A stretch of DNA of 64,000 nt from Chloroflexota bacterium (GTDB lineage: Bacteria > Chloroflexota > Anaerolineae > Anaerolineales > E44-bin32): positions 5,594 through 69,593 of the forward strand of contig JADFRQ010000002.1 in NCBI GenBank assembly GCA_022561215.1. Reading direction: 5' to 3'. The number at the start of each line of letters is the position of its first letter. The stretch's first letter is position 1. The notes under the pieces were generated by a model that saw only the letters and a list, made by a program, of their open reading frames with translations, did not search any database and was not told the DNA's origin. This document shows positions 38,943 through 60,170 of the stretch, one piece after another. Position numbers and translations under genes: made by a program.

Positions 38943-39000
38943 GCTGTCTTATTCCCAACTTCTTTTGAGTGCGAAGATCAGGTCGGAAGAGTGTACTCAT

Positions 39001-39025
39001 CCGTGATCGGTGAATCCGATCACGG
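39001..39025. other. Perfect 10-bp-stem hairpin between livF and the OCD-family gene
   Basis: The hairpin is CCGTGATCGG-tgaat-CCGATCACGG. No adjacent T-tract exists on the transcribed (minus) strand, so it is not a canonical terminator. Confidence 0.3.
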
Positions 39026-39242
39026 ACATTCTCGATCGAACGAGGTTGTCATGTTCTGCTTGCCACATCTCATTGCTTGATAGCGCGATCTGTCGAGACA
39101 AGAGGGTATCATCGGCTTGGCGGATAGATTATCTGGAGTGTCCTCGCAGTCCGAATACTTCTAAAGAACGTTGGTAAGGGTTTGCCAGCCTGAGGTTTGA
39201 GGTCTCTAGCGGTTAACTAGGATTGAAGTCCACCGGAATCTT

Positions 39243-40756: not shown

Positions 40757-40772
40757 TATGTAAGATCCTCGC

Positions 40773-42515: not shown

Positions 42516-42548
42516 TTCGTTCTCTCTGATGAAAATTCAAAGAGGGCG

Positions 42549-43625
42549 TCAAGCCTTCTCTTCGGCCAAGCGCTCGCCTAATAATCCTTGCGGGCGGAAA
42601 ATTAACACGATCACAAGCATAACAATGGCGATCACGTCTTTGAGTTGATTCGCGGCGGGGATGCCCAGGCCCTGCAAGATCAGGTTTGGCCCTATGCCCT
42701 CAAAGACACCCAGGAAAAGTCCACCCAGCATGGCCCCTGGGATGTTTCCAATTCCTCCAAGAACAGCGGCGGTGAAAGCCTTAAGCCCGGGGACGAAGCC
42801 CATAAAGAACGATATTCCTTGCGGTTGATACACACCCCTTAATACGCCGGCGGCGCCGGCGAGCATCCCACCGATAGCGAATGTAATCACGATAACTCGA
42901 TTCACGTCGATTCCCATCAACGCCGCGATCTCCTTATCCTCGGAGACTGCCCGCATGGATTTGCCGGTTTTGGTGCGTTCTACAAACCAATAGAGTCCCG
43001 CCATCATCACCAGAGCAGCCAGGAACACGGCCACTTGAACGACCTGGATATTGGCGCCAAAAATATTCCACTGCCCCATCATACGTCCAAATTCAGGATA
43101 GACCTTAAATCCACTGCCGAAAAAGCCCCGAAAGGCATATTGCAAGAAAAAGGAGGCGCCGATGGCCGTTATCAGCGGGACCAACCGGGGTGCGTTTCTA
43201 AGAGGTCGGTACGCAATGCGTTCAAGCAAGAGGGCGACAGTGGTCGAAACGGCCATGGATAGCAACAGCAGAGCGCCGATCGTCAGGAACGGGTGGCGCG
43301 CCAGGAAGCCGGATTCTTCGAGCGCTTCGGCCAGAAAAACAGAAGTGAAAATTCCTGCCATGAAAACCTCGCCGTGGGCGAAGTTGATCATCAAAAGAAT
43401 GCCGTAAACAAGAGAATAGCCCAACGCAATCAGCGCGTAGATGCTGCCTTGAGCAAGCCCTGCGATCAGCAGGGCTAGCCACGTACTGGCCGAATAGCGA
43501 CCCGAAGCTAGTGTGCTGATAGATCCCCACAGGACGATCACGAGCACCCCGATCCGCAGCGCCCATAAGAGCAGCCCCGTCCATGAAAAACGTTTGAGGA
43601 ATATCCGTCGCGTTATCGTTGCCAA
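42549..43625 (-). CDS. livH: Branched-chain amino-acid ABC transporter permease LivH
   Basis: Recognised segments are QGSIYALIALGYSLVYGILLMINFAHGEVFM and the family-typical C-terminus. The start codon is TTG, with GGGAG 9 nt upstream. Confidence 0.88.
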   Translation of the reverse strand: MATITRRIFLKRFSWTGLLLWALRIGVLVIVLWGSISTLASGRYSASTWLALLIAGLAQGSIYALIALGYSLVYGILLMINFAHGEVFMAGIFTSVFLAEALEESGFLARHPFLTIGALLLLSMAVSTTVALLLERIAYRPLRNAPRLVPLITAIGASFFLQYAFRGFFGSGFKVYPEFGRMMGQWNIFGANIQVVQVAVFLAALVMMAGLYWFVERTKTGKSMRAVSEDKEIAALMGIDVNRVIVITFAIGGMLAGAAGVLRGVYQPQGISFFMGFVPGLKAFTAAVLGGIGNIPGAMLGGLFLGVFEGIGPNLILQGLGIPAANQLKDVIAIVMLVIVLIFRPQGLLGERLAEEKA

Positions 43626-43736
43626 ATCTCATCTCCCGAAAATTCAATTGTGAGCCAGGGGCGGCGTGCTCCCCTGGCTCACGCATAAACTACAAAGATT
43701 CAGGTTGTGATCCTTGGAAGAAGGACCAACCCTAAT

Positions 43737-45086
43737 CTATGGCGCCCACACAAACGGCGGGTGGACCCCCACTTCAAAGACATCCTCTGAAGCGATCCAT
43801 TCTGCATTGACCTTGAAGACCGCTAGCGCTTCGCCGGTGGCGCAGTCGCCGCGGTATTCAACCCCAGGCTGCAGCTCCTTGGGGCCACAGTCGAGGACGC
43901 CGGTGACACCGTCAAAGCCGGAGGTGGCTTCGACCGCATCCCGCAGCGCCTGACGGCCGATGTGGACTGTGCCATCCGCATCCACGACGGCAACTGCCTC
44001 CATGGCATCCATCAGGATGTTGATCCCGTCATAGGCGTGCTCGCCGAACGGTCCCGGGGGCAACGCGCCATGCATAGCCACATATGCGTCCATGAGTGCG
44101 GCTTGTTTCGACCCGGTCACGTTGGGACCGGAAAGATACATTCCCAATGCAGCCTCCCCTGCTGAAGGCGCGAAAGGCGACACGAGCAAACCATCCGCGG
44201 CGAACAGGATTGTGTCCTCCAGACCCGGCACTTCCACCGACTGAGCGACGATGAAATCGCCCTCTGGCTGGAAGACGGGGAAGAAAAGCACGTCCGGGGA
44301 GTCGACGGCGATGGTTGTCAGCACGGGCCGCATATCCAGATCGCCCTTGTTGACGGCTTCCGTCGATGTCACCGTCCCTCCTAGTTTCGCGAAGTTATCG
44401 GTGAATGCTGCGGCGAGGCCCTGTGTATAGGGATCACCGTCGTGGATGGCAGCCGCCGTCCGCGCACCTAGCTCATCGTAAGCGAACTGCGCCGCCATGG
44501 CGCCCTGAAACAAATCGTTATGCGCGGTGCGGAAGTAGCCTGGCTCCCATGTCTGGCCGGGATCGGTCAAGGCGGGAGAGGTGTTGGAAGGCGATATGAT
44601 CGTCAGGCCCGCCCCGCTGATCGTCGACATGGCCGCGGTCATTGCACTGGAACATGTGGTTCCAATGACCCCGACAATGGTGGGATCGGCGGCAATCCTC
44701 TGCGCAGCCGTCGCACCACCCTCGGCGCCGCATCCAGTTTCCTCACCCGTTAGCAGGATATCATGCCCGAGAAGTTGGCCGCCGCGTTCTTCGATGGCGA
44801 TTTCCATCGTACCAATGGCGGATTCACCATAGATTGAGGCCCCGCCTGTAATAGGCAGCATCCATCCGATATGGATCGGATCGTCGGGTGCGATGTCCAG
44901 ACAGCCAAGATCGTCAGTACAGACGAACTCCTCGACAACTGGAACATCGGTTGGCTCCTCAACTGCTGGAGCGTCAGTTGGCTGGTCAACCGCTGGGGGT
45001 TCATCAGTAGCTGTTGCTCCGCATGCGGAGAGGGTCATGGCCGCAATTACAAGTAGCCCAACAAGGGCAAATGTCTTTCGATGCAT
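43737..45086 (-). CDS. livK: Amino-acid ABC transporter substrate-binding lipoprotein (LivK-like), second copy
   Basis: It has lipobox MTLSAC and a repetitive P/T/E/V linker (DEPPAVDQPTDAPAVEEPTDVPVVEE). A type I PBP core follows, and GGAGGAG precedes the ATG. Confidence 0.85.
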   Translation of the reverse strand: MHRKTFALVGLLVIAAMTLSACGATATDEPPAVDQPTDAPAVEEPTDVPVVEEFVCTDDLGCLDIAPDDPIHIGWMLPITGGASIYGESAIGTMEIAIEERGGQLLGHDILLTGEETGCGAEGGATAAQRIAADPTIVGVIGTTCSSAMTAAMSTISGAGLTIISPSNTSPALTDPGQTWEPGYFRTAHNDLFQGAMAAQFAYDELGARTAAAIHDGDPYTQGLAAAFTDNFAKLGGTVTSTEAVNKGDLDMRPVLTTIAVDSPDVLFFPVFQPEGDFIVAQSVEVPGLEDTILFAADGLLVSPFAPSAGEAALGMYLSGPNVTGSKQAALMDAYVAMHGALPPGPFGEHAYDGINILMDAMEAVAVVDADGTVHIGRQALRDAVEATSGFDGVTGVLDCGPKELQPGVEYRGDCATGEALAVFKVNAEWIASEDVFEVGVHPPFVWAP

Positions 45087-46077
45087 CTCTACGTCTCCTC
45101 CTCACTTAGATAATAGATTCGCAAGTTCCTATTCATTTGATGGGTCTTTTACAAGCTTAGGCTATATATTGTGCGATAGTCACTCTTCCTTTCTTATCCG
45201 ATAATCCTGGCAGGGGGCTGAAACATTGCGAGGCCGCTCGATCCCGAGCAGAGACCAATCGTTGTTTCATCTGAATCGCGCCCCAGCGAACCACCTGCGG
45301 AGCGAGACCCCTGTATAACGGCTGTAGGACTAAGAGGGCATGCTAGCATTATTTCAAGCATTCGTCAAGAAGCCAAAATTAGGAAAAATTAGTGTAATTA
45401 GACCAGAGAATTTCACTACATGATGCCGGCCTCTTCCGACTGGCGCATCGATGCGAATTGAGATTTCACTCCCGATTGGAGGACTCGCCGCGGAGGCACA
45501 GACGTGTACGACAGAGCAGTCCCCTCGTGAGCAAGGGGAGATCGCGTCGCTTGCTTTCGGCTTATTTACCGGAGAATGGCAAGCGAGGGTATGGGGCCGG
45601 CAGCCCCTATATTGGGCTTTGTCCTAAGAGGAAGCCCCACAGCAAGCTGCGGGGTTCTTCAACCAGATGTCAACATTCCAGGGGATTTGTCGCGCCCAGC
45701 AAAGCTCAAGGGAGCTCGTCCGGTCAGAGTAGGGACCAAGCCCGGCCTGTAGCACACACCCGGCCTAAATAGTAATCGGAACGTCTGCATGTTGGAACAC
45801 TCCACCGGGTTCTGCATCAATCCTTTTCCCTTGGTTCGCGAGCCTTTCAGGCAGCAAAATCTAGAGCCTATGTGTGCGGAGATCGCGCGATTGAAGGCGG
45901 GGGTGGTTCGCGCTTAGTCATGTGGTTGGCTGGGCGATATTTACATCGATTCATAGCTCCGCTACACGTAATCAGGCCGCAGCATGGTTGCTGGACTTGA
46001 CCTTCTGTTGGGGAGCAGCTAGGATGCCGCTCGAACCCGACGGTACGAAAAGCTTACCGGGGATTGAATAATCTCTA

Positions 46078-47635: not shown

Positions 47636-48781
47636 GTGGAAGCAGAAATCATTACCATTGGCACCGAATTACTTTTGGGCGAAATTGTGGATGCGAATTC
47701 GCGGACAATCGCCCGCGCGCTGAGGGAAATCGGGCTCGACCTCTATCGCACGACGACAGTTGGGGATAACGTAGAGAGGATTGCCCAAGTCGTGAAAGAG
47801 AGCGCAGAGCGGGCACAAGCCGTAATCACAACCGGCGGTTTGGGCCCCACCGTCGATGATCCCACGCGCGAAGCGATGTCAATCGCATTTTCATCTCCGC
47901 TCGAATTCAAACCCGAATTGTGGGAAGAGATTATTGAACGATTTTCAAGATATGGCACTGTGCCTAGCGAAAACAATAAACAGCAAGCATTCATACCCAG
48001 GGGAGCGATCGTTATTTCCAATCCTGTTGGGACGGCTCCGGCGTTCATTATCGAGACTCCTAGCTCCGTCGTAATCGCGCTGCCTGGAGTCCCTGCAGAG
48101 CTTGCTGTTCTCTTGGAATCAGATGTGATTCCCTATCTGCGCAAGAAATTAAAGCTACGCCAGATAATTAAGACACGTATCCTGCGAACCGCTGGAATTG
48201 GCGAATCCTGGCTCGATAATAAGATCGAGGATCTAGAGCGCATGAGCAACCCCACGGTTGGGCTAGCTGCGCATCCGGGCCTTGTTGATATCCGCATTAC
48301 GGCAAAAGGGCCAAACTCGGCAGCAGTCGACGAAATGATCTGGAAAATGGAAGCTACAATCCGCCAGAGATTAGGGGACCATATCTATGCATCCGATCAA
48401 ACCGCCCTCGAGGATGTCATTATCGAGCAACTAGAAGAGAAAGGATGGAAGCTCTTGTTCTTTGAATTGGGAACCAATGCCGTACTCGAAAAATCATTCG
48501 CCGGACGAGATTCCCAGTTCAGAAAGTATGCCGAGATTGATCCCGCGCTGAATGTTAAAGAACTTCCCAAATTGATCCAAGAAACAATCGAAGATCAACA
48601 ATTTGAAGTGGGGTTGGGGATTCATCTCAGCCAGAACGATCAACAACAATTTGCGGAGATTTTCATCCACCTACCCGACGAAGTCAAACATATTTCGAAA
48701 ACCTACGGCGGACCAAGAGAAAATGCCCCGAAATGGGCGGCGGCTCTTGCGTTATCAAGCTTGCGCAGAAAATTGCATTGA
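47636..48781 (+). CDS. cinA: CinA-like protein (MoCF-binding N-domain; C-terminal PncC-like domain appears degenerate)
   Basis: A GTG start precedes EAEIITIGTELLLGEIVDANSRTIARALREIGLDLYRTTTVGDNVERI..ITTGGLGPTVDDPTREA. The C-terminal 128 aa read FFELGTNA where the conserved AESCTGG box is expected. They also lack the G-I-A-G-P box. Confidence 0.78.
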   Translation: MEAEIITIGTELLLGEIVDANSRTIARALREIGLDLYRTTTVGDNVERIAQVVKESAERAQAVITTGGLGPTVDDPTREAMSIAFSSPLEFKPELWEEIIERFSRYGTVPSENNKQQAFIPRGAIVISNPVGTAPAFIIETPSSVVIALPGVPAELAVLLESDVIPYLRKKLKLRQIIKTRILRTAGIGESWLDNKIEDLERMSNPTVGLAAHPGLVDIRITAKGPNSAAVDEMIWKMEATIRQRLGDHIYASDQTALEDVIIEQLEEKGWKLLFFELGTNAVLEKSFAGRDSQFRKYAEIDPALNVKELPKLIQETIEDQQFEVGLGIHLSQNDQQQFAEIFIHLPDEVKHISKTYGGPRENAPKWAAALALSSLRRKLH

Positions 48782-48806
48782 CAAAGATTTTGCGCGTTCA
48801 TATAAT
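48778..48806 (+). promoter_or_regulatory. Consensus sigma-70 promoter for tRNA-Gly
   Basis: TTGACA (48778-48783) is followed by a 17-nt spacer and TATAAT (48801-48806). The tRNA 5' end at 48819 lies 12 nt downstream of the -10 box. The -35 hexamer overlaps the cinA stop codon. Confidence 0.65.
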
Positions 48807-48818: not shown

Positions 48819-48890
48819 GCGGGCATGGCTCAGTGGTAGAGCGTCTGCTTCCCAAGCAGAATGTCGCGGGTTCGAATCCCGCTGCCCGCT
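48819..48890 (+). tRNA. tRNA-Gly (anticodon CCC)
   Basis: I folded the cloverleaf by hand. The acceptor is GCGGGCA/TGCCCGC and the D arm is GCTC-AGTGGTA-GAGC. The anticodon arm is TCTGC-TTCCCAA-GCAGA, the variable loop is ATGTC, the T arm is GCGGG-TTCGAAT-CCCGC and the discriminator is T. The 3' CCA is not fully encoded (tCCt). Confidence 0.93.
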
Positions 48891-48924
48891 CCTTGAGCAA
48901 GCGCGCCGATTCACCCTCTGTTAG

Positions 48925-49122: not shown

Positions 49123-49494
49123 GGCCGAGTAGTTACAACCTTGGTCAGCATTTTTCGTGAATTTGACCTCGCGGATGAGCCCATTCGCCTTGGGCGAATA
49201 CTCGCCGAATTAATGCCGGATGAACCCGAAATTCTTGTTCTTTTGGCAATGATGCTTTTGCATGATTCTCGAAGGGATGCGCCGCGTATCGTCTTTCGGA
49301 ATACCTCTCCTGTTAGAAGATCAGGGTCGCAATCTATGGGATCGCAATTCGAGAATCAAAGGCCTGATCTCGAATGTGAGGCACCCTTCCAATTATCCAT
49401 ATTCTTCTATATACGCGAAGGAACGGGGACGAGGATTCGTGGTTACCATCAACCTGAAGCTCAACGTCGCCCAGAAATAGAAAAAGCCTCCTGA
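49123..49494 (+). pseudogene. Decayed fragment of a COG4941-type ECF sigma factor C-terminal domain (frameshifted, N-terminal sigma regions missing)
   Basis: Frame 1 reads VSIFREFDLADEPIRLGRILAELMPDEPEILVLLAMMLLHDSRRDAP. The homologous continuation IPLLLEDQGRNLWDRNSRIKGL sits in another frame (ORF 49262-49480). Both pieces match my memory of the ..A.RLAR.L..L.PDEPEV.GLLALMLLH.ARR..R......L.L.DQDR.LWD motif. No sigma region 2 or 4 is present upstream. Confidence 0.4.
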
Positions 49495-49592: not shown

Positions 49593-49877
49593 CTAACCCA
49601 TCCCTTGTTGCTCAATTTCTTGAATTCTTCTTCCAATCGCCCACGACTGTCTGCGGGAATGGTCCATGAGAATCACATAATAAGCCGAATTTTTTGGATC
49701 AGATGATAATAACTGAAAATAATGATCGATCATTTGTGTAAATCGGTGCTTTGAAAGTATTAATTGTTCCTTTGTCATTTCCAATCTCCCTTTACCGGAT
49801 CCAAGTTCGCTCAACGGAGTTTCCCCATTATAAGGATTGGCATCATTTCGAATTACCATTAACAATCTCCATTTCAT
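49593..49877 (-). CDS. Hypothetical small protein
   Basis: A 94-aa ORF, possibly 61 aa from the internal MTKEQLIL. No motif was recognised and coding status is uncertain. Confidence 0.3.
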   Translation of the reverse strand: MKWRLLMVIRNDANPYNGETPLSELGSGKGRLEMTKEQLILSKHRFTQMIDHYFQLLSSDPKNSAYYVILMDHSRRQSWAIGRRIQEIEQQGMG

Positions 49878-49993: not shown

Positions 49994-50479
49994 ATGCCGT
50001 GGGAATCTTGCCTGCATACGAGCAGTTTAATATATAATATCTGTCAATTCTCTGGGAGTAACCAACGCACAGTGTCCTCAAAAATAGAAAACGTCACCAT
50101 CCTCATCGTGGAGGACAACGTATCCAATTTTGTGTTGATGGCGCGCATGCTTGGACACATGGGTCTGCAGTGTGAATGGAAGACCTCCGGTCATGAGGTC
50201 GTTGAATATGCCGATACACTTGGGCGCGTCGACCTTATTCTAATGGACATTCGCCTCCCCTATGAAGATGGCTATCAAGCTCTTCAAAAACTTCGTGGTC
50301 ATGAACGATTAATGAATGTTCCCGTTGTCGCGGTGACCGCCTATGCAAGTGAGGATCAGATGCGACGTGCAGAAAAAGAGGGCTTTGACGGATTTGTGGG
50401 CAAACCCCTCAATCCCGACCGTTTCCCGGACCAGATTCGACGAATGCTGAACGGGGTTCCGGTTTGGGAGATTGAATAA
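49994..50479 (+). CDS. Single-domain response regulator (CheY-like receiver)
   Basis: The sequence ILIVEDNVSNFVLMARML..VDLILMDIRLPYEDGYQALQKLR..VPVVAVTAYA..GFDGFVGKPL retains all canonical receiver positions. The true start is probably downstream of the track ATG (for example GTG 50072). Confidence 0.85.
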   Translation: MPWESCLHTSSLIYNICQFSGSNQRTVSSKIENVTILIVEDNVSNFVLMARMLGHMGLQCEWKTSGHEVVEYADTLGRVDLILMDIRLPYEDGYQALQKLRGHERLMNVPVVAVTAYASEDQMRRAEKEGFDGFVGKPLNPDRFPDQIRRMLNGVPVWEIE

Positions 50480-50482
50480 TCC

Positions 50483-52318
50483 ATGTTGAGCGATGAGAAG
50501 GAAGCCCGGCAAAAACTTGGTCGAAAATTAACCCTCGTTCTTCTTCCGTTGGTCCTCATTCCTGCGCTTCTTATCGCTGGAATTGCTTATGGCAATACGC
50601 AATCCGAGTTGGAACACAGAACCAATGAGCAATTGGAAACTGCCCTTCAAGGTCAATTAAGTGTATTGAATGCATTTGTTCTTGAACAAGAAAATTTGCT
50701 CACTCAGCTTGTGATTAGCTCGGCACTCAGGGAGAAATTGATCTCTGCCCTTGGTGATCCGCAGAACAATGACGCTGCGTTGCTGCTTAATAATGAATTA
50801 AAGTTGCTGCAATCCTCTCTTGGAAGCACAAACTCGGCGGGGTTATTCATTCTTAACATGATTAATGGGAAAGTTCTATTTTCGACGGATGATCAATTCG
50901 TTGGTGATGCATTTGTCTTCGAACCACAAATCCTATTTCAAACCGTCCCCCTGGCGAATGACCTTAGATTTGCTTCAAATTCGATTACATTCCTATCCGT
51001 CCTTTCCCTCCAATTGGAGAATTCTATTGAAGGAAATTTTGCTCTGGCAAATATAAGTTCGGCCCGCCGCGTCGAGCAACTGGCCGCTACCATGCATACA
51101 TTCGTATCGAATGACGCTGACGAGCCTACGGCAGCGATCACTTCCTTCATCAGCGTGCGACCAGATATCTACCTGAGACACAATGTGAATGAGCCCCCTT
51201 TTGTGACTTTGAATACCAACGTCGAGCCCGTGTTTGCTGCACTCGATCCCTCGGATCGCGTTCGTTATTTATTTAAGAATGATCAGGGGGAGGAGATATT
51301 CGTAATTGCCCAATGGAGCGCCGCCACGGATATTGCCTTGGGCATCGAAAGCGCAACCGGAAACCTATTCAGCACCAATTCGAGTACGGCGTCCATCCTG
51401 GTCATTAGCATTATCCTGGTAACAACAATTGCCGTGCTGGCCATCCTGGGGGTCACAAATCGGATGTTGCAGCCACTAAGCTCGTTAACTGAACTCGCGC
51501 GGCGAATGACCCAGGGAGATTGGAATTTCCGCGTCGCCGAAGATCGAGATGACGAATTGGGCTATTTAGCAAAATCACTAAACCAGATGGCAAGAGAATT
51601 GGGAGCCCTTTACGAATCTATGGAAAGAAGAGTCGAGGATAGAACCAAGCAGATTCGAATTGCCTCTGAGGTAGCTCGCGCAGTCCTCTCTATCCCCAAT
51701 CTCGATGAGCTGCTGCGCCAGGCTGTCAATTTAATCAAGGATCGATTTGGTTATGATCATGTCTCCATCTTTCTCATCGATAAAGAGGGAAACAATGTTG
51801 TCTTACGAGAATCTTCTAGCGAAGAAAAAGAGGCGCTCAAGACAGTCGGTTATAAATTAAAAATAGGCTCACCATCGATGGTGGGCATGGTGACGGAAAG
51901 CAACGAGCCAAAAATTTTATCAGGGACGAATAATGAACCAGAAATAACAATGGACGAATTGCTTCCTGGAGCGCGTTCCGAGGTTGCAATTCCTCTCCAA
52001 CTGGCCGGCAACTCCCTTGGGGCCCTGGCCATTCAAAGTTACTCGCGCGATGCCTTCAAAACGGAAGATATTGAGGTGCTGCAAACGCTTGCAGATCAGC
52101 TCAGCGCTGCGATTGAAAATGCTCGTTTGGCTCAAGTATCCACAAACGCGGCGGAAAGAGCCCGGCTGGTGAGTGAAATTACCAGCCAGATTAGCGGATT
52201 AAGTGATCCGGGGCAGGTTCTTCACACCACCGCAAAAGCGCTACACAAAGCTTTGGGTGAAGCAGAGATAATAATCAATCTTGTTTCGCCTTCGGATGAT
52301 ATCGAGGATATCGCTTAG
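50483..52318 (+). CDS. Transmembrane sensor-like protein: TM, about 270-aa extracytoplasmic domain, TM, HAMP, GAF, C-terminal half-GAF stub; no output domain
   Basis: TM helices are LTLVLLPLVLIPALLIAGIAY and ILVISIILVTTIAVLAILGV. The HAMP segment is LQPLSSLTELARRMTQGDWNFRVAEDRDDELGYLAKSLNQMAREL. The GAF segment is LDELLRQAVNLIKDRFGYDHVSIFLID..SEVAIPLQLAGNSLGALAIQS..EDIEVLQTLADQLSAAIENARL. Confidence 0.85.
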   Translation: MLSDEKEARQKLGRKLTLVLLPLVLIPALLIAGIAYGNTQSELEHRTNEQLETALQGQLSVLNAFVLEQENLLTQLVISSALREKLISALGDPQNNDAALLLNNELKLLQSSLGSTNSAGLFILNMINGKVLFSTDDQFVGDAFVFEPQILFQTVPLANDLRFASNSITFLSVLSLQLENSIEGNFALANISSARRVEQLAATMHTFVSNDADEPTAAITSFISVRPDIYLRHNVNEPPFVTLNTNVEPVFAALDPSDRVRYLFKNDQGEEIFVIAQWSAATDIALGIESATGNLFSTNSSTASILVISIILVTTIAVLAILGVTNRMLQPLSSLTELARRMTQGDWNFRVAEDRDDELGYLAKSLNQMARELGALYESMERRVEDRTKQIRIASEVARAVLSIPNLDELLRQAVNLIKDRFGYDHVSIFLIDKEGNNVVLRESSSEEKEALKTVGYKLKIGSPSMVGMVTESNEPKILSGTNNEPEITMDELLPGARSEVAIPLQLAGNSLGALAIQSYSRDAFKTEDIEVLQTLADQLSAAIENARLAQVSTNAAERARLVSEITSQISGLSDPGQVLHTTAKALHKALGEAEIIINLVSPSDDIEDIA

Positions 52319-52423
52319 GGGAGGAAGACTCATGCTCGATTGCGTTCACGCCTGCCGCCACTGCTTGTTGGAAGTTCTGCATCGCATCGAATGTGATCGT
52401 ATTCCTGACAGGTAAATTCAGCC

Positions 52424-54664
52424 ATGCTTAATCGTTTCCAAAAATTGCTAGCTGGAACTTCCGACAAGCCTGCCATCGCGCAAAAACAGTACTTGCTCAA
52501 TGTCGTCCTTGCGGCACTCGGCGTGCCCAGCCTGATATTTGGACTGGCGATGTTAATTCTTTGGATGGTGGATGGTTTGCCACCTCCTGGCGTATTCGCC
52601 GGGTTCATCCCCCTGCCCTTCTTCCTGGCTTCCTATTGGCTGAGCCGTCGCGGATTTCAAAATCTTGCCGCGCTTATTCCGACGAGTCTTGTATTCGTCT
52701 TGATGTTGACCTCTCTCTTTCAGGCCGATATGGGACATGTCGTCAGCATTGGATTCGCACTGGTGGTCGTTGCCGCCGGTGTATTGATCGGTCCCGGGAC
52801 TGCTACAATTTTCGCGGCGCTCAGCGTGGGAGCCTTTGGATTGACCTGGTGGCTGCAAGTCAACGGATGGATAACAGGTACATTGCTTCCAGTTGAAAAT
52901 GCCCTCATCGACACCCTAGGGTTAGGGCTTGGGCTTGCTGCCCTTGTCTTATTCAACGGGCTGTATACTCGCGAAATGAGGCGCGCATTACGGGTCGAAC
53001 AAGAACTCACCCGCCACCTTCAAGTTGAGAGCCAGAATTTGGAGGATGAAGTCAAAAATAGGACCCAAAGTTTGGAGCGCAAAGCAACCCAATTGGAGAC
53101 GATTGCTGAAATCGCCCGCCTGGCAAGTGAAATGTTGGATCCGCAGGAATTGATGGACCAGGCCGTCGTGGCAATTCGCTCACGATTCGGCTTTTACCAT
53201 GTTTCTATCTATTTGCTCGATGATACGGGCAACTGGGCCAATCTCGAAGCAAGCACGGGTGAGGCAGGAAAAACGCTTATTACCCAGCACCATAGGCTGG
53301 CAACCGGCAGCGCGAGCATCATTGGTTGGGTAACCACCAACCGGCTTCCGCGGATTAGCATGCGGGTCGCAGATGATCCTTTCTACTTTAAGAATCCGCT
53401 GCTCCCCGATACACAATCCGAATTAAGTGTGCCGCTCATGGTAGGACCCAGGTTATTAGGAGCGCTCGATATCCATAGCTCGCAGCGCGATGGTTTTTCT
53501 GAGGATGACGTTAGGGCCCTTGAAGCCATAGCTGGGGAATTGGCGATTGCGATTGAGAGCAGTCGACTCATTCGACAGACGCAAATGCAGCTGCAGCGAT
53601 TTGAAGCTTCCTATCGCGAATTGGCGCGCCAATCCTGGAGCCGTATCGCCGACGATCCGGGCATAAATAGTGTTCATCTTGGTGGAGCTTCAATCAGAGA
53701 AAAAAATAAAAAATTCGAAACGCTGGAATTGGCGCGCACAAGAGAAGAACCCGTACTCAGCAATGATGAATTGGAGATCGCGGTCCCGGTACAGATGCGC
53801 GGGGAAGTAATCGCCACAATTGGTGCACGAAGAACCGAGCAAGACGATCCCTGGACAGAGGATGATATCGCCCTGCTTAAAGCCGTAGCCAGTCAAACTG
53901 CCCTGGCCCTTGAAAGTGCTCGACAATACACCGAAGAACACCGACGGGTTACCGAATTGGAGGTTATCAATAGAATCAGCCAAGCGGTATCTCAACATAT
54001 TCGCCTTGATTCGCTTTACCGCATTGTGCATGCGCAAATTAATCACGTGTTAGGTGAGACGGATATGTATCTCGCTCTGTACGATCCTGAATTAGAGCTC
54101 TTATCATTCCTATATGTATCGGAAAACAGAGAAGTGATCAAGGTCCCACCGATGCCGCTCGGAGAAAGCTTGCCAGCCCTCATCATTCGAACGCAACAAC
54201 CCTTGTTATTGTCGGAGGACACCGAGCGCCGAGCAAAAGCGCTCGGTGCTGAGGGCGGAGATCGAATAGCGCGCTCTTGGCTGGGGGTGCCGTTGTTAAT
54301 CGGTGATGAAAAGATCGGCATAGTGGTGGTTCAGGATTTTGAAAATGAAAGGCGCTACACAGAGGACGATGTGGCATTAATGACAACCATCGCTAGCCAG
54401 GTCGCTACTGCTCTGCAAAATGCTCAACTGATGGATCAAATTCAACGGACGGCGCGTCGTGAGCGTCTCATTCATGAAATTACCAGTAAGGTTCGCCGAG
54501 CGCCCGATCGCAAGACAATTTTGGAGACAGCGGCAAAGGAGTTAAACCGTGCGCTTAATGCGACCAGCACATTGATCCAACTTCGATCGCAAAGCACCGA
54601 CCAGGAAGCACGCGAGAATCGAAATGCGCAAATTGCAGAACTCGAATCCAAAGGCAAGACATAA
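52424..54664 (+). CDS. Multi-pass membrane GAF protein (about 6 TM, coiled coil, GAF, C-terminal-half-GAF module, GAF, half-GAF stub); no output domain
   Basis: The first about 185 aa are hydrophobic. GAF1 reads PQELMDQAVVAIRSRFGFYHVSIYLLD..SELSVPLMVGPRLLGALDIHS. The later GAF reads LDSLYRIVHAQINHVLGETDMYLALYD..SWLGVPLLIGDEKIGIVVVQD. No H-box, ATPase, GGDEF, EAL, HD or HTH was recognised. Confidence 0.85.
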   Translation: MLNRFQKLLAGTSDKPAIAQKQYLLNVVLAALGVPSLIFGLAMLILWMVDGLPPPGVFAGFIPLPFFLASYWLSRRGFQNLAALIPTSLVFVLMLTSLFQADMGHVVSIGFALVVVAAGVLIGPGTATIFAALSVGAFGLTWWLQVNGWITGTLLPVENALIDTLGLGLGLAALVLFNGLYTREMRRALRVEQELTRHLQVESQNLEDEVKNRTQSLERKATQLETIAEIARLASEMLDPQELMDQAVVAIRSRFGFYHVSIYLLDDTGNWANLEASTGEAGKTLITQHHRLATGSASIIGWVTTNRLPRISMRVADDPFYFKNPLLPDTQSELSVPLMVGPRLLGALDIHSSQRDGFSEDDVRALEAIAGELAIAIESSRLIRQTQMQLQRFEASYRELARQSWSRIADDPGINSVHLGGASIREKNKKFETLELARTREEPVLSNDELEIAVPVQMRGEVIATIGARRTEQDDPWTEDDIALLKAVASQTALALESARQYTEEHRRVTELEVINRISQAVSQHIRLDSLYRIVHAQINHVLGETDMYLALYDPELELLSFLYVSENREVIKVPPMPLGESLPALIIRTQQPLLLSEDTERRAKALGAEGGDRIARSWLGVPLLIGDEKIGIVVVQDFENERRYTEDDVALMTTIASQVATALQNAQLMDQIQRTARRERLIHEITSKVRRAPDRKTILETAAKELNRALNATSTLIQLRSQSTDQEARENRNAQIAELESKGKT

Positions 54665-57105
54665 TGGGGAGCGCGCCTGCCACAGAAAAATCTCGATCCA
54701 GCCGGCTTAGCCTGGGGGTGCGGCTTACCCTACTCACCTTGACCCTGGTCCTTATTCCTCTGTTCTTGATCGCAGGAGGTGCTTATCTCCGCGCCGCAGA
54801 CCTTCTGAAAAATCAAACGAACCCAGAAATAACAGCTGCTTTAAGTGATTTGGCGCCAATTACGATCGGCCTGGTTGTGGCAGCGACGCTTTTAATTCTT
54901 ATTTTGGTGCCTTTGATCTCGCGCCGATTTCTGCGTCCCTTGGATGCCCTTATTACGTTCTCCGAACGCCTCGCTGCCGGCGATTTGAAATACCGCGTTT
55001 CTACAAACAAGAATGATGAGATTGGTCGCCTTGCCCAGTCGCTCAATCACATGGCCGATGAGCTCAATGAGTTTTACATGACTCTGGAAGCACGCGTTCT
55101 CCAGCGAACGAAAGAAATTCGCCTTGCGGCTGAGATGGCGCGTGACGCCGCGGCAAGCCGTGATGTCGATCAATTATTTAAAGAGACCTTGCATTTGATT
55201 TCAGATAAATTCACCTTTTATCACAGCGGCATCTTCATGCTTGATGATGATCGCCAGACAGTGCAGCTCAAGGCCGCTTCATCGGAAGGCGGAAGGCGGA
55301 TGCTCAATCGAGGACATAGTCTTCCGGTCGGCAAAACTGGGCTGGTCGGTTATGCAACAGATACAGGCGAAACTCGCCTCATGCAGCGTATCGGGGAAGA
55401 TCCTCATTATTTCGCCAACCCAGATCTCCCTGAAACACAATCGGAAATTGTTCTGCCCTTAATTGTCTCCGGCGAAATCATCGGCGCACTGGACGTGCAA
55501 AGTAGACAGCTCGACGCATTCTCGGAGGCCGATGTTCTCATCCTCCAAATTATCGCAGATCAACTCGCTGTTGCCCTTGAAAACACACGCCTGCATAAGA
55601 GACAGATCGCGCTTACGGATCAGAGAAGCAAAGTTATCGAGCTTTTCAATGTTCTCAGCCAGCAGACCAACTACGACAAATTAGTGGAGGAAATCCCGAA
55701 CGCGATTCGCGAATCATTTGGGCTAAGTCGAGTGACTTTGGGATTGGTTGAAGGCGAAAACGTAGTTGTTCGCAGTGTTTCGTCTGCGGAAAGTGCCCTG
55801 CTTCCTTCGCCGGTTGACACGAGCCCGATTGGGCAAGGGGTTCTGGGTAAAACCGTGGTGATGAAAAGCACGCAGAAATTGACTTTGCAGCCGCTGCATG
55901 AGTTAGAAACGCAGGATCCGCGCCAATCTATATCGAACACAATCCTCGCGATTCCATTAATCATTCGCGACAAGGTCATCGGTTCTCTGGCATTTGAAAG
56001 TGGTTCCAAAAATGAACTAGACAAAGACGAAATTGAAGCATTGGAGATTATCGCCTCCCAGACAGCCTTCGCGCTGGAAAATGTTCGCCTATTTGAAGAA
56101 ATGCAATTAAGTTTGCAACAGATGGATTCGCTCCATCGCCAGCAAACCGCCAGCGTTTGGGCTCAACTGCTTGATGAACCATCCAAGCAGGGTGATGCGA
56201 AAGTTGAATATGGGTTTCCCGATTCTGCGGCAAGCAGAGAAGATCCTGGCATAGAAACGTCGATCGAGCTACGTGGAGAAGTAATCGGAAATATGGCTCT
56301 GCGCGGCATCCGCACTGGTGAATGGTCTCAAGAAGACCGTGACATCCTCAAAGCCGTTGCGGATGAACTCGCCAATGCCTTGGAACAAACCAGACTCCTT
56401 GAGGAGATCAACCGCAGAGTTGCACAGCTTCAAACGGCCGCGGAAATTGCCCGCAGTGCCAGCAGCCTTATGGATCTCGATTCTCTCCTCGAGCGTGCGG
56501 TAAGCCTTGTGCAGCAGAGATTCAATTTCTATCATGTTTCCATTTATCTCATCAGTGAATCGGGGTCAGAGATGATCCTTTATGCAGCGGCAGGAAGCGA
56601 GAGTATCGAGCTCAATGCCGTAGAACCCAAGATATTAAGTTCTTCGAATTCGGTGGTCGCCAAGGTCGTGCAAAGCGGGAAACACTTCGCCGCAAATGAC
56701 ACAGAATTGGACCCCGATTATGGGCATAATCCGCTGCTGCCAGAAACACGCTCTGAGCTGGGAATCCCGCTCAAGATCGGGGCAAGCGTGATTGGCGTAT
56801 TCGATGTCCACCATGATGAGCCCCATGCATTTAGCGATGACACTATTTCAGTGCTGCGTATTCTTGCTGATCAAGTTGCCATCGCCGTCCAAAATGTGCG
56901 CTTATTCGAACAGACCTATTTGCGCGCCGAGCGCAAAAAATCCGTGGTCAGCATTACGAGTCGCATTCGCGAGACGCGCGATGTTGATAGTATGCTGCAG
57001 ACTGCCCTTAGCGAACTTCATTCCGTGTTGGGAGCTCAGCGCGGAAGAATTCAACTCACGAATGAATCGAAATCCCTGCGGACAGGCATCAATGCAATAG
57101 AATAG
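54664..57105 (+). CDS. Transmembrane HAMP + multi-GAF protein (2 TM, HAMP, GAF, GAF, C-terminal-half-GAF module, GAF, half-GAF stub); no output domain
   Basis: The start ATG overlaps the upstream stop (TAATG). The HAMP segment is LRPLDALITFSERLAAGDLKYRVSTNKNDEIGRLAQSLNHMADEL. GAF cores include FYHSGIFMLDD..SEIVLPLIVSGEIIGALDVQS and FYHVSIYLISE..SELGIPLKIGASVIGVFDVHH. Confidence 0.85.
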   Translation: MGSAPATEKSRSSRLSLGVRLTLLTLTLVLIPLFLIAGGAYLRAADLLKNQTNPEITAALSDLAPITIGLVVAATLLILILVPLISRRFLRPLDALITFSERLAAGDLKYRVSTNKNDEIGRLAQSLNHMADELNEFYMTLEARVLQRTKEIRLAAEMARDAAASRDVDQLFKETLHLISDKFTFYHSGIFMLDDDRQTVQLKAASSEGGRRMLNRGHSLPVGKTGLVGYATDTGETRLMQRIGEDPHYFANPDLPETQSEIVLPLIVSGEIIGALDVQSRQLDAFSEADVLILQIIADQLAVALENTRLHKRQIALTDQRSKVIELFNVLSQQTNYDKLVEEIPNAIRESFGLSRVTLGLVEGENVVVRSVSSAESALLPSPVDTSPIGQGVLGKTVVMKSTQKLTLQPLHELETQDPRQSISNTILAIPLIIRDKVIGSLAFESGSKNELDKDEIEALEIIASQTAFALENVRLFEEMQLSLQQMDSLHRQQTASVWAQLLDEPSKQGDAKVEYGFPDSAASREDPGIETSIELRGEVIGNMALRGIRTGEWSQEDRDILKAVADELANALEQTRLLEEINRRVAQLQTAAEIARSASSLMDLDSLLERAVSLVQQRFNFYHVSIYLISESGSEMILYAAAGSESIELNAVEPKILSSSNSVVAKVVQSGKHFAANDTELDPDYGHNPLLPETRSELGIPLKIGASVIGVFDVHHDEPHAFSDDTISVLRILADQVAIAVQNVRLFEQTYLRAERKKSVVSITSRIRETRDVDSMLQTALSELHSVLGAQRGRIQLTNESKSLRTGINAIE

Positions 57106-57151
57106 GAAAAAGTTCGAGAACCCAGACATTATCCCCATCCCAAGGACACGT

Positions 57152-57922
57152 ATGACTTACAAAATCGCGGTGGCCAATCAAAAAGGCGGCGTAGCGAAAA
57201 CAACAACGACACTTTCATTAGGTGCCTCATTCACAGAAAATGGATTTAAGGTTCTGCTCATCGATCTCGATCCTCAAGCGAATCTGACATTGGCGCTTGG
57301 TTTTAAGCCAACGGTGCTTGAGGGAGCGATGGGCGATGTGCTCCTCGGCGGAAAAATGCTTTCGGAGATTGTGCTTAAAACCGCGCAAGAAAATCTCAAT
57401 CTCGCGCCGTCCAATGACGAAATGCAACTTGCGGATCGTTTCCTGGGAATGAGGGATAATTTTGAACGAATTCTGCTGGATGCTTTCAACGATGTGCGCG
57501 AGTACGACTATATTCTAATGGATTGTCCTCCAGCGATTGGCCCGCTCACCCAATGCGCACTAACTGCAGCCGATCTTCATATCCTTCCTACGCAATGCGA
57601 GTATTTTTCGGCGCATGCAATTCGATCATCGCTTGCCCTAATACGAGATATCCGCGAAAGGACCAACCCTGCCTTAAGATATCGCGTCCTACTCACAATG
57701 ATCGACTCCTCGAATCAGGTCCATCAAAGCCTTAATCATCAAATTCGAAGAGCATTTAATAACGCAGTATTTGAAACTGAGATTGAAATTGACGGAAAAT
57801 TACGCGAATCTCCTCTCTTCGCAAAACCCATTACGATGTATGCCCCGGAAAGTTTAGGAGCAATCCAGTATCGTCAGTTATCCAGGGAATTGTTAGAAAA
57901 TGGAATCACAGAATCTGCATAA
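57152..57922 (+). CDS. ParA/MinD-family P-loop ATPase (orphan; no ParB nearby)
   Basis: The deviant Walker A reads KIAVANQKGGVAKTTTTLSLGASF. Also present are LLIDLDPQANLT and Walker B-like YDYILMDCPP. The product is 256 aa. Confidence 0.88.
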   Translation: MTYKIAVANQKGGVAKTTTTLSLGASFTENGFKVLLIDLDPQANLTLALGFKPTVLEGAMGDVLLGGKMLSEIVLKTAQENLNLAPSNDEMQLADRFLGMRDNFERILLDAFNDVREYDYILMDCPPAIGPLTQCALTAADLHILPTQCEYFSAHAIRSSLALIRDIRERTNPALRYRVLLTMIDSSNQVHQSLNHQIRRAFNNAVFETEIEIDGKLRESPLFAKPITMYAPESLGAIQYRQLSRELLENGITESA

Positions 57923-60170
57923 ACAGCTTGAACATATTTTTTCAAATTTTTATGAGGCTGATACCGTCCGTCGCGTTGATTCGCTTGAACCATACGGGCC
58001 CTTCCCCCGCGGTTGGGCTTGGGAAGCCGACAGCGACGGAATTCTTCTTTGGTGCAGTTCTGAAGTTTTCGATCTCCTGGGATTCTCCGCAACCGAGCTA
58101 ATCGGCCGCTCGCTTTTAGCGTTTGCGCATACACCTAAATCTGCTGAAGAATTACAGATTGCGCTGGCGACAAGAAAGCCAATTCAAAATCTGCGCATTC
58201 AGGGTATCAATCGTGAAGGTGAGTCCCTGAGCTTGTTAATTAATGCATTGGTTCGCAACGTTGGGGATCCACCGCAGCCTCGTTATCGTGGGGTGACACA
58301 AATCTTAATGACCAGTGCGCTTGAAGAAATCGAGTTTGAAATAGCGAATCAACTTTCCGAGAGAGATGTTGATCTCGCTGCATTGCGCAGCCCGGCATGG
58401 GGATCGGCACATGGGTATGAATTGGAGACAGATCGTGTGCGTATGATCCCGGCGATTGCAAAAGAGGAAATTCCGCGTAGTCCCCAGCTGAGGGAACATA
58501 TTCTCAGGGTCCCGATCATAGGCCAGGAGGGAACCGCTATCGGCGTTTTTGAATTTGAGCGCTCAATAGAAGAAGACCCTTGGACCCAGCATCACCAAGA
58601 ACTGGTGACGGAGGTGTCGATCCAGCTTGCTCTCGCACTTTACGATGCAAGATCGTATGAGCTTACACAACAGGCATTGGATGAAATGCAGAAGGCCGAT
58701 CGACTCAAAAGTCAATTCCTGGCCAATATGAGCCATGAGCTGAGGACACCCCTAAACTCGATTATTGGGTTTTCACGCGTAATATTAAAAGGAATCGATG
58801 GACCCATTACAAAAACCCAGGAACACGATCTCAATTCAATTTATAGCGCCGGACATCATCTCCTGGGGTTGATCAACAATATCCTCGAATATTCCAAGAT
58901 TGATTCAGGCAGAATGAAGTTGACTTTCAAGGAATTCGACCTCGCAGAATTAATTCGCGATGTTATGGCAACTGCGGTGGAACTCGTCAAGGATAAACCT
59001 GTCCGATTATTGATTAGATTGCAACAGAAACTACCGCGCATTACAGCAGATAACATGCGTACGCGTCAAATTCTTCTTAATCTGGTTTCCAACGCGGCAA
59101 AATTTACGGAAAGGGGGGAGATTAGGTTAACCGCCATGGTCCAGAAATATCATGATCGAAATGAAATGCTTATTTCGGTATATGATACTGGGCAAGGTAT
59201 TGCCAAAGATGATCAAGAAAAGATATTTGAACCATTTTCTCAAGTCGATCCCTCGCTGAGTAACAATAGTGGCGGTACTGGCCTGGGGCTCTCGATTTGC
59301 CGTCATCTTGTTCAACTGCAAGGTGGACGAATCTGGGTGGAGAGTTCCCCAGGTAAAGGCAGCACTTTTTTCTTTACGATCCCGATGCAGGAAGAAGGGG
59401 TTGAAGGTGCTGCGCATCCAAAACTCTTAAGCATATCCTCGAGGGCGGATGTAATCCGTGTGCAAAACGAAATTTTTAGTGCAGTAGGATTTGAGTTTCA
59501 CTCCGCCACAGATGAAGCCGCGATCTCTCGGGCTCTGGAGGCTAGCCAACCAAATGTGATCCTGGTCGATCTTACCCCTACCGATGGATTGGGTTGGAAA
59601 TTAATTTCTAAACTAAAGGATAATGAAACAACAAGGGCCATCCCCGTTAGCGCATTCTCCTTATCTGATGATTCCCGAAGCGCGTATGATTTAGGCGTTG
59701 GAGCATTCATCACAGAACCGGTAGCCGTCGAGAGTCTGCGAGCTTCGATTAAATTCCTAATCGATGATCAGGACGATAAACTCGATGTCCTCATCATCGC
59801 TGAGACCATGCAGCAGATCGAAGGCATTTCACAGCACATCTCGGCGATACTCCCGTCGGAGATTCGAACAGCTACATCTGGATTTGAAGGATTGGTGGCA
59901 GCGCGTCAAAAAACACCTGATCTAATTATCATCACTATATTTATGCCGAAAGCGGACGGATTCCGAATGATGGAGGCCTTGCGCGTTGACGAGAGAACCA
60001 AAGAGGTACCCATCTTGCTGATTTTGCCAAATCTATTAAGCGATGTACATTTGCGCCAGCTTAACCTTTGGACTCATCACAGCCGTGAGAAAGCCGCAAT
60101 CTCACCGGAATTGTACGCGCAAGTTCTGCGAACGCGATCCGGCAGGCTAGCTCGCTTTCCAAGTAATTGA
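57900..60170 (+). CDS. Hybrid sensor histidine kinase (PAS, C-terminal-half-GAF module, HisKA, HATPase_c, two degenerate receiver-like domains)
   Basis: The H-box is FLANMSHELRTPLNSIIGFS, the N-box LLNLVSNAAKFT, G1 VYDTGQGI and G2 GGTGLGLSICRHLVQLQGGRIWVES. The C-terminal 250 aa form two receiver-like folds with altered key residues. The start overlaps the ParA gene by 23 nt. Confidence 0.88.
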   Translation: MESQNLHKQLEHIFSNFYEADTVRRVDSLEPYGPFPRGWAWEADSDGILLWCSSEVFDLLGFSATELIGRSLLAFAHTPKSAEELQIALATRKPIQNLRIQGINREGESLSLLINALVRNVGDPPQPRYRGVTQILMTSALEEIEFEIANQLSERDVDLAALRSPAWGSAHGYELETDRVRMIPAIAKEEIPRSPQLREHILRVPIIGQEGTAIGVFEFERSIEEDPWTQHHQELVTEVSIQLALALYDARSYELTQQALDEMQKADRLKSQFLANMSHELRTPLNSIIGFSRVILKGIDGPITKTQEHDLNSIYSAGHHLLGLINNILEYSKIDSGRMKLTFKEFDLAELIRDVMATAVELVKDKPVRLLIRLQQKLPRITADNMRTRQILLNLVSNAAKFTERGEIRLTAMVQKYHDRNEMLISVYDTGQGIAKDDQEKIFEPFSQVDPSLSNNSGGTGLGLSICRHLVQLQGGRIWVESSPGKGSTFFFTIPMQEEGVEGAAHPKLLSISSRADVIRVQNEIFSAVGFEFHSATDEAAISRALEASQPNVILVDLTPTDGLGWKLISKLKDNETTRAIPVSAFSLSDDSRSAYDLGVGAFITEPVAVESLRASIKFLIDDQDDKLDVLIIAETMQQIEGISQHISAILPSEIRTATSGFEGLVAARQKTPDLIIITIFMPKADGFRMMEALRVDERTKEVPILLILPNLLSDVHLRQLNLWTHHSREKAAISPELYAQVLRTRSGRLARFPSN

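Follow-up and report, generated by a model that had tools for sequence, protein, structure and literature searches.

A conserved Chloroflexota operon encoding output-less GAF sensors, a Soj-like ParA ATPase and a two-component kinase with a ParB-like N-terminal peptide

Related systems and conservation of the gene order

ATPases of the ParA/MinD family place chromosomes, plasmids, carboxysomes, flagella, division sites and chemoreceptor arrays. In the PpfA-TlpT system of Rhodobacter sphaeroides and the ParC-ParP-CheA system of Vibrio, an orphan ParA-type ATPase is encoded within a signalling operon, its gene lies directly 5' of that of a soluble signalling protein that acts as its partner via the N-terminus, and the cargo includes a histidine kinase (PMC9178275, PMC10241942). 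We analysed a 64,000-nucleotide stretch of contig JADFRQ010000002.1 from an Anaerolineales bacterium of the Chloroflexota (hereafter the window), in which six genes on one strand encode a single-domain response regulator (RR), three membrane sensors (P1, P2 and P3), a ParA ATPase and a histidine kinase (HK). The original prediction, made from the window sequence, had compared this cluster to the ParC/PpfA systems. These systems are its nearest analogues, and the comparison holds as a likeness of function, with an orphan ParA-type ATPase gene again found in a signalling operon and directly 5' of the gene for a soluble signalling protein, which is here a putative partner through its N-terminus, but it does not extend to the che genes. 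Genes for methyl-accepting chemotaxis proteins (MCPs), CheW, CheA, CheB and CheR were absent from the cluster and from related loci, a classical HisKA/HATPase_c kinase is the candidate partner, the receptors are of the HAMP/GAF type and lack an MCP signalling domain, and the window ParA is nearer to Soj than to ParC.

The locus also resembles chromosomal ParABS (Soj-Spo0J/ParB), where the downstream gene overlaps parA and encodes a protein that begins with an L-x-K/R-x-L-x-x-L-F/L peptide, borne on a disordered linker. Here, however, the downstream protein is a sensor kinase without the helix-turn-helix, CTPase domain or GERR box of ParB, and the ParB pocket of the ATPase is remodelled. In three-component and co-sensor systems such as UhpC-UhpB-UhpA and TorT-TorS, accessory sensors without a transmitter control a kinase in trans. 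The sensors studied here are likewise transmitter-less and encoded with a kinase, over which their control in trans is putative, but they are three large HAMP/GAF membrane proteins that share a common stub and are accompanied by a ParA, and they are not homologous to known accessory sensors. The conservons CvnA-D of Actinomycetota are a further operon type that combines a sensor kinase-like protein, a P-loop NTPase switch and accessory proteins; they use a Ras-like GTPase and its roadblock partner (PMC13343842) where the present operon has a ParA/MinD-type ATPase, and the proteins of the two are not homologous. Literature searches and reviews yielded no description of such a cluster, no ParA tied to a classical sensor kinase and no stub-ended GAF family, in line with the suggestion that this is an uncharacterised type of system.

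The six genes form a lineage-specific operon that is a conserved unit in Anaerolineales and other Chloroflexota. We tentatively read it, at somewhat less than even confidence, as a multi-sensor two-component module whose kinase would be tethered, positioned or gated by a dedicated ParA. The order RR-P1-P2-P3-ParA-HK, on whose recurrence among relatives the original prediction depended, was found in more than 25 contigs from these groups, with ParA identities of 51-67% across the loci. Twelve loci with the full order (L001-L011 and L022) comprise two JGI contigs, two NCBI Anaerolineales metagenome-assembled genomes, a 1.46-Mb contig and seven GTDB species representatives; the more distant loci L083 and L084 have the same order. 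A metagenome DNA-pattern scan seeded with the kinase PAS motif alone returned 20 loci, in which ParA lay directly 5' of the kinase gene and overlapped it wherever upstream sequence exists, and P3, P2, P1 and RR preceded ParA where the contig was long enough. A homologue search with the N-terminal 260 aa of the kinase returned zero matches, though kinase orthologues exist. ParA itself has more than 120 orthologue clusters, and its closest named relatives are from Anaerolineales bacteria of the Chloroflexota.

All six open reading frames (ORFs) lie on the plus strand at the coordinates originally predicted, namely RR, DivK/CheY-like, at 49994-50479 (Pfam Response_reg, E 3e-22); P1 at 50483-52318 (HAMP and one GAF); P2 at 52424-54664 (GAF stretches only); P3 at 54664-57105 (HAMP and three or four GAF stretches); ParA, a Soj-like ParA/MinD-family ATPase of 256 aa, at 57152-57922 (AAA_31/CbiA); and HK at 57900-60170 (PAS, partial GAF, HisKA, HATPase_c and two Response_reg stretches). 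Pfam thresholds were E<=0.01 for whole proteins and E<=10 for sub-segments, and none of the six proteins reached an NCBIfam equivalog cut-off. The spacings were also as predicted: 3 nt between RR and P1, 105 nt between P1 and P2, a 1-nt P2/P3 overlap, 46 nt between P3 and ParA, and a 23-nt ParA/HK overlap. The P3/ParA and ParA/HK overlaps are kept among relatives, the window itself having the 46-nt gap at the former junction. Retention of these start/stop overlaps argues for co-translation of P3 (in many loci also P2), ParA and the kinase. In some lineages an epimerase gene is inserted between P1 and P2 and a Bmp lipoprotein gene between P2 and P3, with the core order intact. Identity to orthologues is highest for RR (71-76%), followed by ParA at the range given above, P2 and P3 (40-66%), the kinase (39-53%) and P1 (36-46%). 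That this arrangement, overlaps included, is found again and again in independent contigs shows that the clustering is not due to chance.

Two further genes were seen beside the operon in relatives. In many of them a fusion of a pyridoxal-phosphate enzyme (PALP) with an intact-looking receiver (L005 12354-14900; L083 13131-15745; L107 7686-10360) and an EamA transporter are encoded 3' of the kinase; the fusion may be an enzymatic output of the system, and neither gene is present in the window. Several relatives have a second single-domain response regulator just 5' of the conserved RR and about 30-36% identical to it (L003 749-1153; L005 1202-1477; L083 1-321), and the window carries one regulator only.

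In the loci compared, a PpfA/TlpT-type arrangement outside the Proteobacteria was apparent from gene content in Algivirga pacifica (Bacteroidota; L027 9983-17751), which encodes a ParA-like ATPase 36% identical to the window ParA, a 1313-aa soluble multi-PAS chemoreceptor, CheW, CheY and CheA, in this order.

The kinase, its N-terminal peptide and ParA

The first 16 residues of the kinase (MESQNLHKQLEHIFSN; 57900-57947, plus strand) form a basic, amphipathic, ParB-like motif that we propose as a putative ParA-binding site. The window peptide reads L6-H-K8-Q-L10-E-H-I13-F14, where L6, L10 and F14 are invariant in kinase orthologues; the consensus is L-x-K/R-x-L-E-x-L-F, and ParA-downstream proteins have basic residues followed by L-x-x-x-L-(E/D)-x-(L/I)-F. 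The next invariant columns in the orthologue alignments are G38 and W39, at the end of a linker (aa 17-37; 57948-58010, plus strand) that varies in length, has no conserved columns and leads into the PAS domain. In the ParB of Myxococcus xanthus, L11, L15, L18 and I19 are each critical for ParA binding, and ParA activation requires a central R13, a position held by Lys in about half of ParBs (PMC12462528). The spacing of the kinase peptide, i, i+2, i+4, i+7 and i+8, is the same as that of the M. xanthus motif. More generally, partners of ParA/MinD ATPases use a charged, disordered N-terminus (PMC10241942).

When a regular expression for the motif was run over the first 26 residues of 1920 ORFs of at least 150 aa from all loci examined, it gave 37 matches, comprising 28 ParA-downstream kinases, eight canonical ParBs encoded beside Soj in other phyla and one unrelated ORF at window 19359-20681. 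The start of this last ORF looks like the N-terminus of Ffh (SRP54). The peptide was also found apart from a kinase. In L080 the ParA is 46% identical to that of the window and the gene that overlaps it downstream encodes a GAF-array protein that has this peptide at its N-terminus (MSSNKKIRNRLDKLFTEI), with no kinase or regulator found within ±10 kb and with a 99-aa ORF, made up of a GAF end and a stub, directly 5' of ParA. Because this ParA-downstream protein is not a kinase and yet carries the peptide, the peptide appears to go with ParA and not with kinase function. A long GAF array separates the peptide from the kinase core in L011, L082 and L107.

The ParA-downstream ORF of L080 (11060-14380; 1106 aa) switches in the middle of a GAF (...SRFGYSF|RGVV...) to a weak C45/AAT acyltransferase-like match (PF03417), which is either a real fusion or an assembly frameshift. 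The 'SLGRRL...' N-termini of P1 and P3 were also considered as a ParA motif and were dropped, as they run straight into the first transmembrane (TM) segment in the way of an ordinary positive-inside start of HAMP sensors. The suggestion that ParA organises the assembly of P1-P3 is thus kept for the involvement of ParA and changed as to the candidate partner, which is now the kinase, through its ParB-like N-terminal motif.

ParA has a deviant Walker A motif (KGGVAKT, aa 11-17) together with DLDPQ and MDCPP, all conserved in 120 orthologues. It belongs to the ParA/MinD family by its Pfam AAA_31 score (159 bits against a cut-off of 27; E 1e-46), and its nearest PDB chains are chromosomal ParA/Soj proteins (E 7e-44, about 45% identity). 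In keeping with this, it might be an ordinary chromosome-partition Soj, with ParB and parS encoded elsewhere and its position beside the signalling genes an accident. We regard this as the least probable of the readings considered, and the original prediction had named it as a potential refutation. No ParB gene lies within 10 kb of ParA in any of more than 25 loci, whereas in the same scan parB was downstream in 12 of the 14 Soj loci of other phyla. No ParB (GERR) box was found in the window, and the overlap of ParA with the kinase start is conserved in all loci.

The residues that would bind a ParB peptide are also replaced. In M. xanthus ParA the hydrophobic pocket for the ParB peptide is made up of V116, L150, L152, L155, L187 and L192 (PMC12462528). 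We mapped these positions through the gap-free blocks of an alignment with 8ray, in which the D60A substitution fixes the numbering. The window ParA has R96, I129, P131, Q134, D166 and T171 there, and across the clade (n=120) the residues most often found are R/Q, L/V/I, P/S/A, R/Q/H, S/D/T and S/T/V, so that only the position of L150 stays hydrophobic and the other five of the six are replaced. In canonical Soj proteins (n=8) the six positions are hydrophobic in five to eight of the eight sequences. The equivalents of Y81 and E117, near the Arg site, are altered too. This remodelling of the ParB pocket across the clade is strong evidence against a canonical ParB as the partner of the ATPase. 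In an insulated paralogue, pocket and peptide would be expected to diverge together. The equivalent of M. xanthus R238, which functions in non-specific DNA binding, is K216 in the window and is Arg or Lys in 84 of the 120 orthologues.

Beyond the peptide and linker, the kinase consists of a sensor part with a PAS domain (aa ~38-125) and a reduced GAF-like unit, termed here mini-GAF (aa ~150-255; together 58011-58664; Pfam PAS and partial GAF), a core with HisKA (aa 270-337) and HATPase_c (aa 384-497; together 58707-59390), and two degenerate receiver-like domains, REC1 and REC2 (aa ~512-625 and 630-745; together 59433-60134), all on the plus strand and delimited, for the core and receivers, by Pfam and alignment. 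Its catalytic boxes are complete (SHELRTP as H-box, NLVSNAAKFT, DTGQGI and GGTGLGLS). A simple hydropathy scan placed membrane segments in P1, P2 and P3 and none in the receiver, ParA or kinase, and the kinase is predicted to be soluble and catalytically intact. It had been called a hybrid kinase, a term that now applies in name only, because both receivers are pseudo-receivers. REC1 has lost the acidic pair, and its conserved Lys is replaced by Glu (FITEP). In REC2 the phospho-Asp is Thr in the window (IIITIFMP) and Thr, Ser or Asn in three of the four orthologues that have this domain. Both are missing from five of nine aligned orthologues.

RR was originally taken as a 161-aa protein, and a start at GTG 50072, which gives 135 aa, is more likely, because its orthologues are 134-136 aa long, their matches begin at about residue 27 and GGGAG is found 13 nt upstream of this codon. 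Its phosphorylation site is intact (ED, the D of LILMDIRLP, the T of AVTAY and the K of VGKPL), and its closest PDB relatives are DivK, the top natural match, and receivers of hybrid kinases. By their motifs and by Pfam scores above the cut-offs, the kinase and RR qualify as a classical two-component system, with phosphotransfer between them putative. The best NCBIfam matches of the kinase core are TorS/BarA/HrmK, and those of RR are the receivers of BarA, TorS and HrmK, in all cases below the equivalog cut-offs. Because both best match the same families, the two proteins would fit a cognate pair in which RR is a detached receiver.

The sensors and their C-terminal stub

Each of the membrane sensors P1-P3 combines its own type of input module with a GAF array, and all three lack a transmitter. 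P1 has TM1 (aa 16-34), a large extracytoplasmic Cache-like domain of about 270 aa, TM2 (aa 305-323), HAMP (aa 324-373), one GAF (aa 406-546) and a C-terminal stub; a faint dCache_1 match covers the extracytoplasmic domain in P1 orthologues. P2 begins with a polytopic membrane domain (aa ~27-177) of five to six hydrophobic segments, followed by GAF (aa 238-385), mini-GAF (aa ~386-505), GAF (aa ~520-672) and stub, and a likewise faint MASE11 match was found for the P2-type membrane domain in L005 and L081. In the window, neither the P1 extracytoplasmic domain nor the P2 membrane domain gave a Pfam match even at E<=10. The input module of P3 is a minimal loop with HAMP, its parts being two TM segments (aa 19-84), HAMP (aa 84-136), two GAFs, mini-GAF (aa ~480-585), a further GAF (aa 604-750) and stub. 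The earlier description of all three as TM HAMP/GAF proteins thus fits P1 and P3 but not P2, whose membrane block is polytopic and in which HAMP was not matched, and the count of at least seven GAF or GAF-like units is refined to six full GAFs, two mini-GAFs (P2 and P3) and three C-terminal GAF stubs.

The absence of an output domain from P1-P3 was upheld by every approach used. Pfam, NCBIfam, a PDB profile search of the tails and structure models matched no kinase, cyclase, phosphodiesterase, phosphatase or DNA-binding domain. AlphaFold2 models were made of P3 aa 596-813 (pLDDT 81.5) and P2 aa 195-746 (pLDDT 70.9), and Foldseek, run on the P3 model, gave as best matches GAF domains and the GAF-PHY helical spine of phytochromes. 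No effector follows the GAF array in any of the three proteins; beyond the last GAF the chain consists only of a truncated GAF start of 47 residues and a tail of low complexity. P1-P3 thus resemble tandem-GAF sensors and the phytochrome GAF-PHY spine in their GAF folds and long inter-GAF helix, and their stubs align to GAF N-termini, but the chain ends after the first two helices of the would-be next GAF and no effector is attached.

The truncated start is the same element in all three proteins. Each closes with one conserved 47-residue stub, equivalent to the first third of a GAF domain (P1 aa 555-600, 52145-52282; P2 aa 675-720, 54446-54583; P3 aa 754-799, 56923-57060; all plus strand). The stub was delimited by a hidden Markov model (HMM) and PDB profiles, with orthologue conservation for P1 and the AlphaFold2 models for P2 (helices 453-497 and 502-517 in model numbering) and P3. 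Orthologue alignment places it after helix a5 of the last GAF and before a variable acidic or proline-rich end. It is conserved among the three paralogues, and paralogue-specific residues are kept across orthologues. The stub HMM had a single, C-terminal match in each P protein and did not match the N-termini of the internal GAFs at a domain E<=0.01. In PDB profiles the stub aligns with the first ~45 residues of GAF domains (6oap 138-179, 8k9o 17-57, 3oov 5-39). In the AlphaFold2 models GAF helix a5 extends into the stub as a 45-residue helix, a second helix follows to give a helical hairpin, and the would-be first strand is unstructured. We also considered the stub as a degenerate HisKA/DHp, since ITSKVR resembles MSHELR; this homology was rejected on the PDB profile alignment to GAF N-termini, and the modelled shape is still a helical hairpin.

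A profile of the three window stubs searched against 1.84 billion representative proteins matched 2458 clusters (50% identity) at E<=0.001. Among the top 150 matches, 86 were long (at least ~260 aa), and in 72 of these the stub lay within 120 aa of the C-terminus, with a median distance of 22 aa. Nine long matches were scanned for domains, and all combined Cache, periplasmic-binding or HAMP regions with GAF arrays and lacked an effector; the source databases label them only as 'GAF domain-containing protein'. We defined the family by a single post-GAF stub within ~120 aa of the C-terminus, roughly of the form ...ENARL..Q..RAERER.V.EITS.IR...D...L.TA..EL..ALG.....I.L; P1, P2, P3 and all their orthologues fall within this definition. 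By this criterion, P1-P3 belong to a large unnamed family of output-less, stub-ended GAF sensors, and the stub is their only conserved candidate for an output or docking surface. A homologue search with the stub alignment returned only fragments of 58-105 aa, which were used to look up genomic context and not as a census. The first three fragments on long contigs, picked by stub similarity alone, were all in ParA-containing clusters.

The mini-GAFs of P2, P3 and the kinase match the Pfam GAF profile only over its C-terminal part (positions 88-133, ~89-136 and 57-133, respectively). An alignment of four mini-GAFs gives as their hallmark a hairpin followed by (D/E)PW(T/S)xxxxxL...V..Q.A.AL, and in the kinase the unit directly precedes the DHp helix. 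Because this unit is common to all three proteins, the sensor part of the kinase is related to the P2 and P3 sensors.

Interpretation and genomic surroundings

In the multi-sensor module that we favour, signals from ligands or the membrane would travel through the helical spines of P1-P3 dimers as far as the stub. The stub would provide the docking and output surface, which the soluble kinase would contact probably with its mini-GAF/DHp region. The N-terminal peptide of the kinase would bind an ATP-bound ParA dimer in the manner of the ParB N-terminal peptide. ParA would then act on the kinase, and through it on the sensor complex, by tethering, distribution or gating, probably with the nucleoid as matrix. 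The kinase would phosphorylate the 135-aa RR, which may act by protein-protein contact or feed a relay, and in many relatives the phosphoryl recipients would include the PALP enzyme-receiver fusion encoded just downstream. The anatomy of the locus is firm and unusual, and its function we infer from the genomes of uncultured bacteria. The sensor-kinase contact, the peptide-ParA contact, the role of ParA in positioning or gating and the phosphotransfer are each proposed from sequence, and signalling by P1-P3 in trans to the kinase is something that we purely infer.

Several observations weigh against this interpretation. The regular expression was written after both kinds of sequence had been seen, so the motif test is partly circular, and the basic residue of the peptide is not fixed in position and is absent from the motif core in L010. 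Stub, ParA and peptide co-occur in L080, which therefore cannot tell whether the partner of the peptide is ParA or the stub. Polar or charged residues occupy the five replaced pocket positions across the clade (n=120). Any binding of the kinase peptide to ParA must therefore involve a remodelled site, and the likeness of the peptide to ParB could be convergent or irrelevant. In TMVDRRNRIH an Arg of the clade consensus is Ser in the window ParA, and because arginines are lost here and the R238 equivalent is basic in only the 84 orthologues noted above, binding to the nucleoid as a positioning matrix is uncertain. The housekeeping flanks (OTCase, pyruvate kinase and POR) are syntenic as well, and part of the conserved order is therefore plain synteny among relatives. 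Finally, L106 (ERZ25039461 contig_94010) encodes a stub-ended HAMP/GAF protein, a Cache/GAF kinase and a PALP-receiver protein with no ParA detected, an absence that is uncertain because the contig is full of frameshifts.

A different role for ParA, which we consider unlikely, is that of the output itself. The sensor state of the kinase would control exposure of the peptide and so set the ATP/ADP and dimer/monomer state of ParA, which would act on a nucleoid-linked process, for example replication initiation, segregation or septum placement in the filament. There is precedent in Soj of B. subtilis, which is controlled by Spo0J and acts on DnaA. The kinship of ParA with chromosomal Soj/ParA, its retained ATPase motifs, the basic residue at the R238-like position of most orthologues and the ParB-like peptide on the kinase would all suit such a switch, and the top natural match of RR is DivK, a cell-cycle regulator. 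However, no replication or division genes are tied to the cluster in any locus examined, likeness to DivK is generic among single-domain receivers, and the window ParA has lost some of its basic residues. It is also quite unlikely, in our view, that P1-P3 do not signal to the kinase at all, being instead autonomous ligand-binding buffers, scaffolds or regulators of other targets that are syntenic with an ordinary PAS kinase-RR pair. Stub-ended, output-less GAF proteins are indeed a very large family, at least one member lies in a cluster without a detectable ParA (L106), and synteny extends to the housekeeping flanks. These points are countered by the translational coupling at P2/P3 and ParA/HK, which is kept across the whole range of ParA identity, by the survival of the core order through insertions of unrelated genes, by the presence in the kinase of the same unusual mini-GAF as in P2 and P3, and by the location of the first three stub fragments looked up, all of them in ParA-containing clusters.

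We also considered that stubs and mini-GAFs are halves of a split GAF that would complement each other in trans to form a chain P1 -> P2 -> P3 -> kinase, the last junction lying beside the DHp helix of the kinase, with ParA controlling where or whether it assembles. The counts are one-to-one in the window, with three stubs and three mini-GAFs, and in L080 there is one stub ORF and a ParA-downstream protein with one mini-GAF right after its N-terminal peptide. We hold this idea to be very improbable.

If the proposed ParA-kinase link is correct, a classical two-component sensor kinase with a ParB-type peptide would be a new kind of ParA cargo or regulatory partner. It would also mean that a ParB peptide can be transferred to a protein of another family as the ATPase pocket diverges along with it, a point of relevance to the way in which a single cell keeps several ParA systems free of cross-talk. 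Thousands of membrane Cache/HAMP/GAF proteins without visible output make up the family that the stub defines, and a conserved C-terminal docking element would offer a concrete idea of how such proteins signal. Anaerolineae are an abundant, poorly studied filamentous lineage of sediments, soils and digesters, and to our knowledge almost nothing is known of their signalling biology.

Because the remaining genes of the window are housekeeping genes, encoding AlaRS, an FtsW-PBP protein, MutS, RtcB, CinA, OTCase and a POR subunit, the window is chromosomal DNA. A search for riboswitches or other RNAs upstream of the operon found only tRNA-Gly(CCC) at 48819-48892 (plus strand). A perfect sigma-70-type site (TTGACA, 17 nt, TATAAT) at 48778-48806, 5' of this tRNA, is the sole 12/12 match in the scanned region. 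Promoter and terminator scans gave counts no higher than in shuffled sequence and so do not mark operon boundaries. Within 500 nt upstream of RR, a 117-aa ORF (49141-49494, plus strand) with a partial DUF6596 match (profile 29-67 of 102) is probably a gene remnant. It is followed by a 94-aa ORF without annotation (49593-49877, minus strand), and neither is kept 5' of the cluster in the relatives compared.

Other features were noted elsewhere in the window. G+C content is 0.54-0.56 over about 10 kb (36001-46000), against 0.47-0.52 elsewhere in the window, and this region contains a branched-chain amino-acid permease-type gene (40773-42515). In a 693-aa ORF (24133-26214, plus strand) an amidohydrolase domain (aa 95-449) precedes a CYTH-like match that is weak and below the Pfam cut-off. 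A SEDS protein and its class B penicillin-binding protein (PBP) partner are usually separate polypeptides. The 887-aa ORF at 16534-19197 (plus strand) carries an FtsW/RodA/SpoVE domain (aa 106-429) and the PBP dimerisation and transpeptidase domains in one chain.

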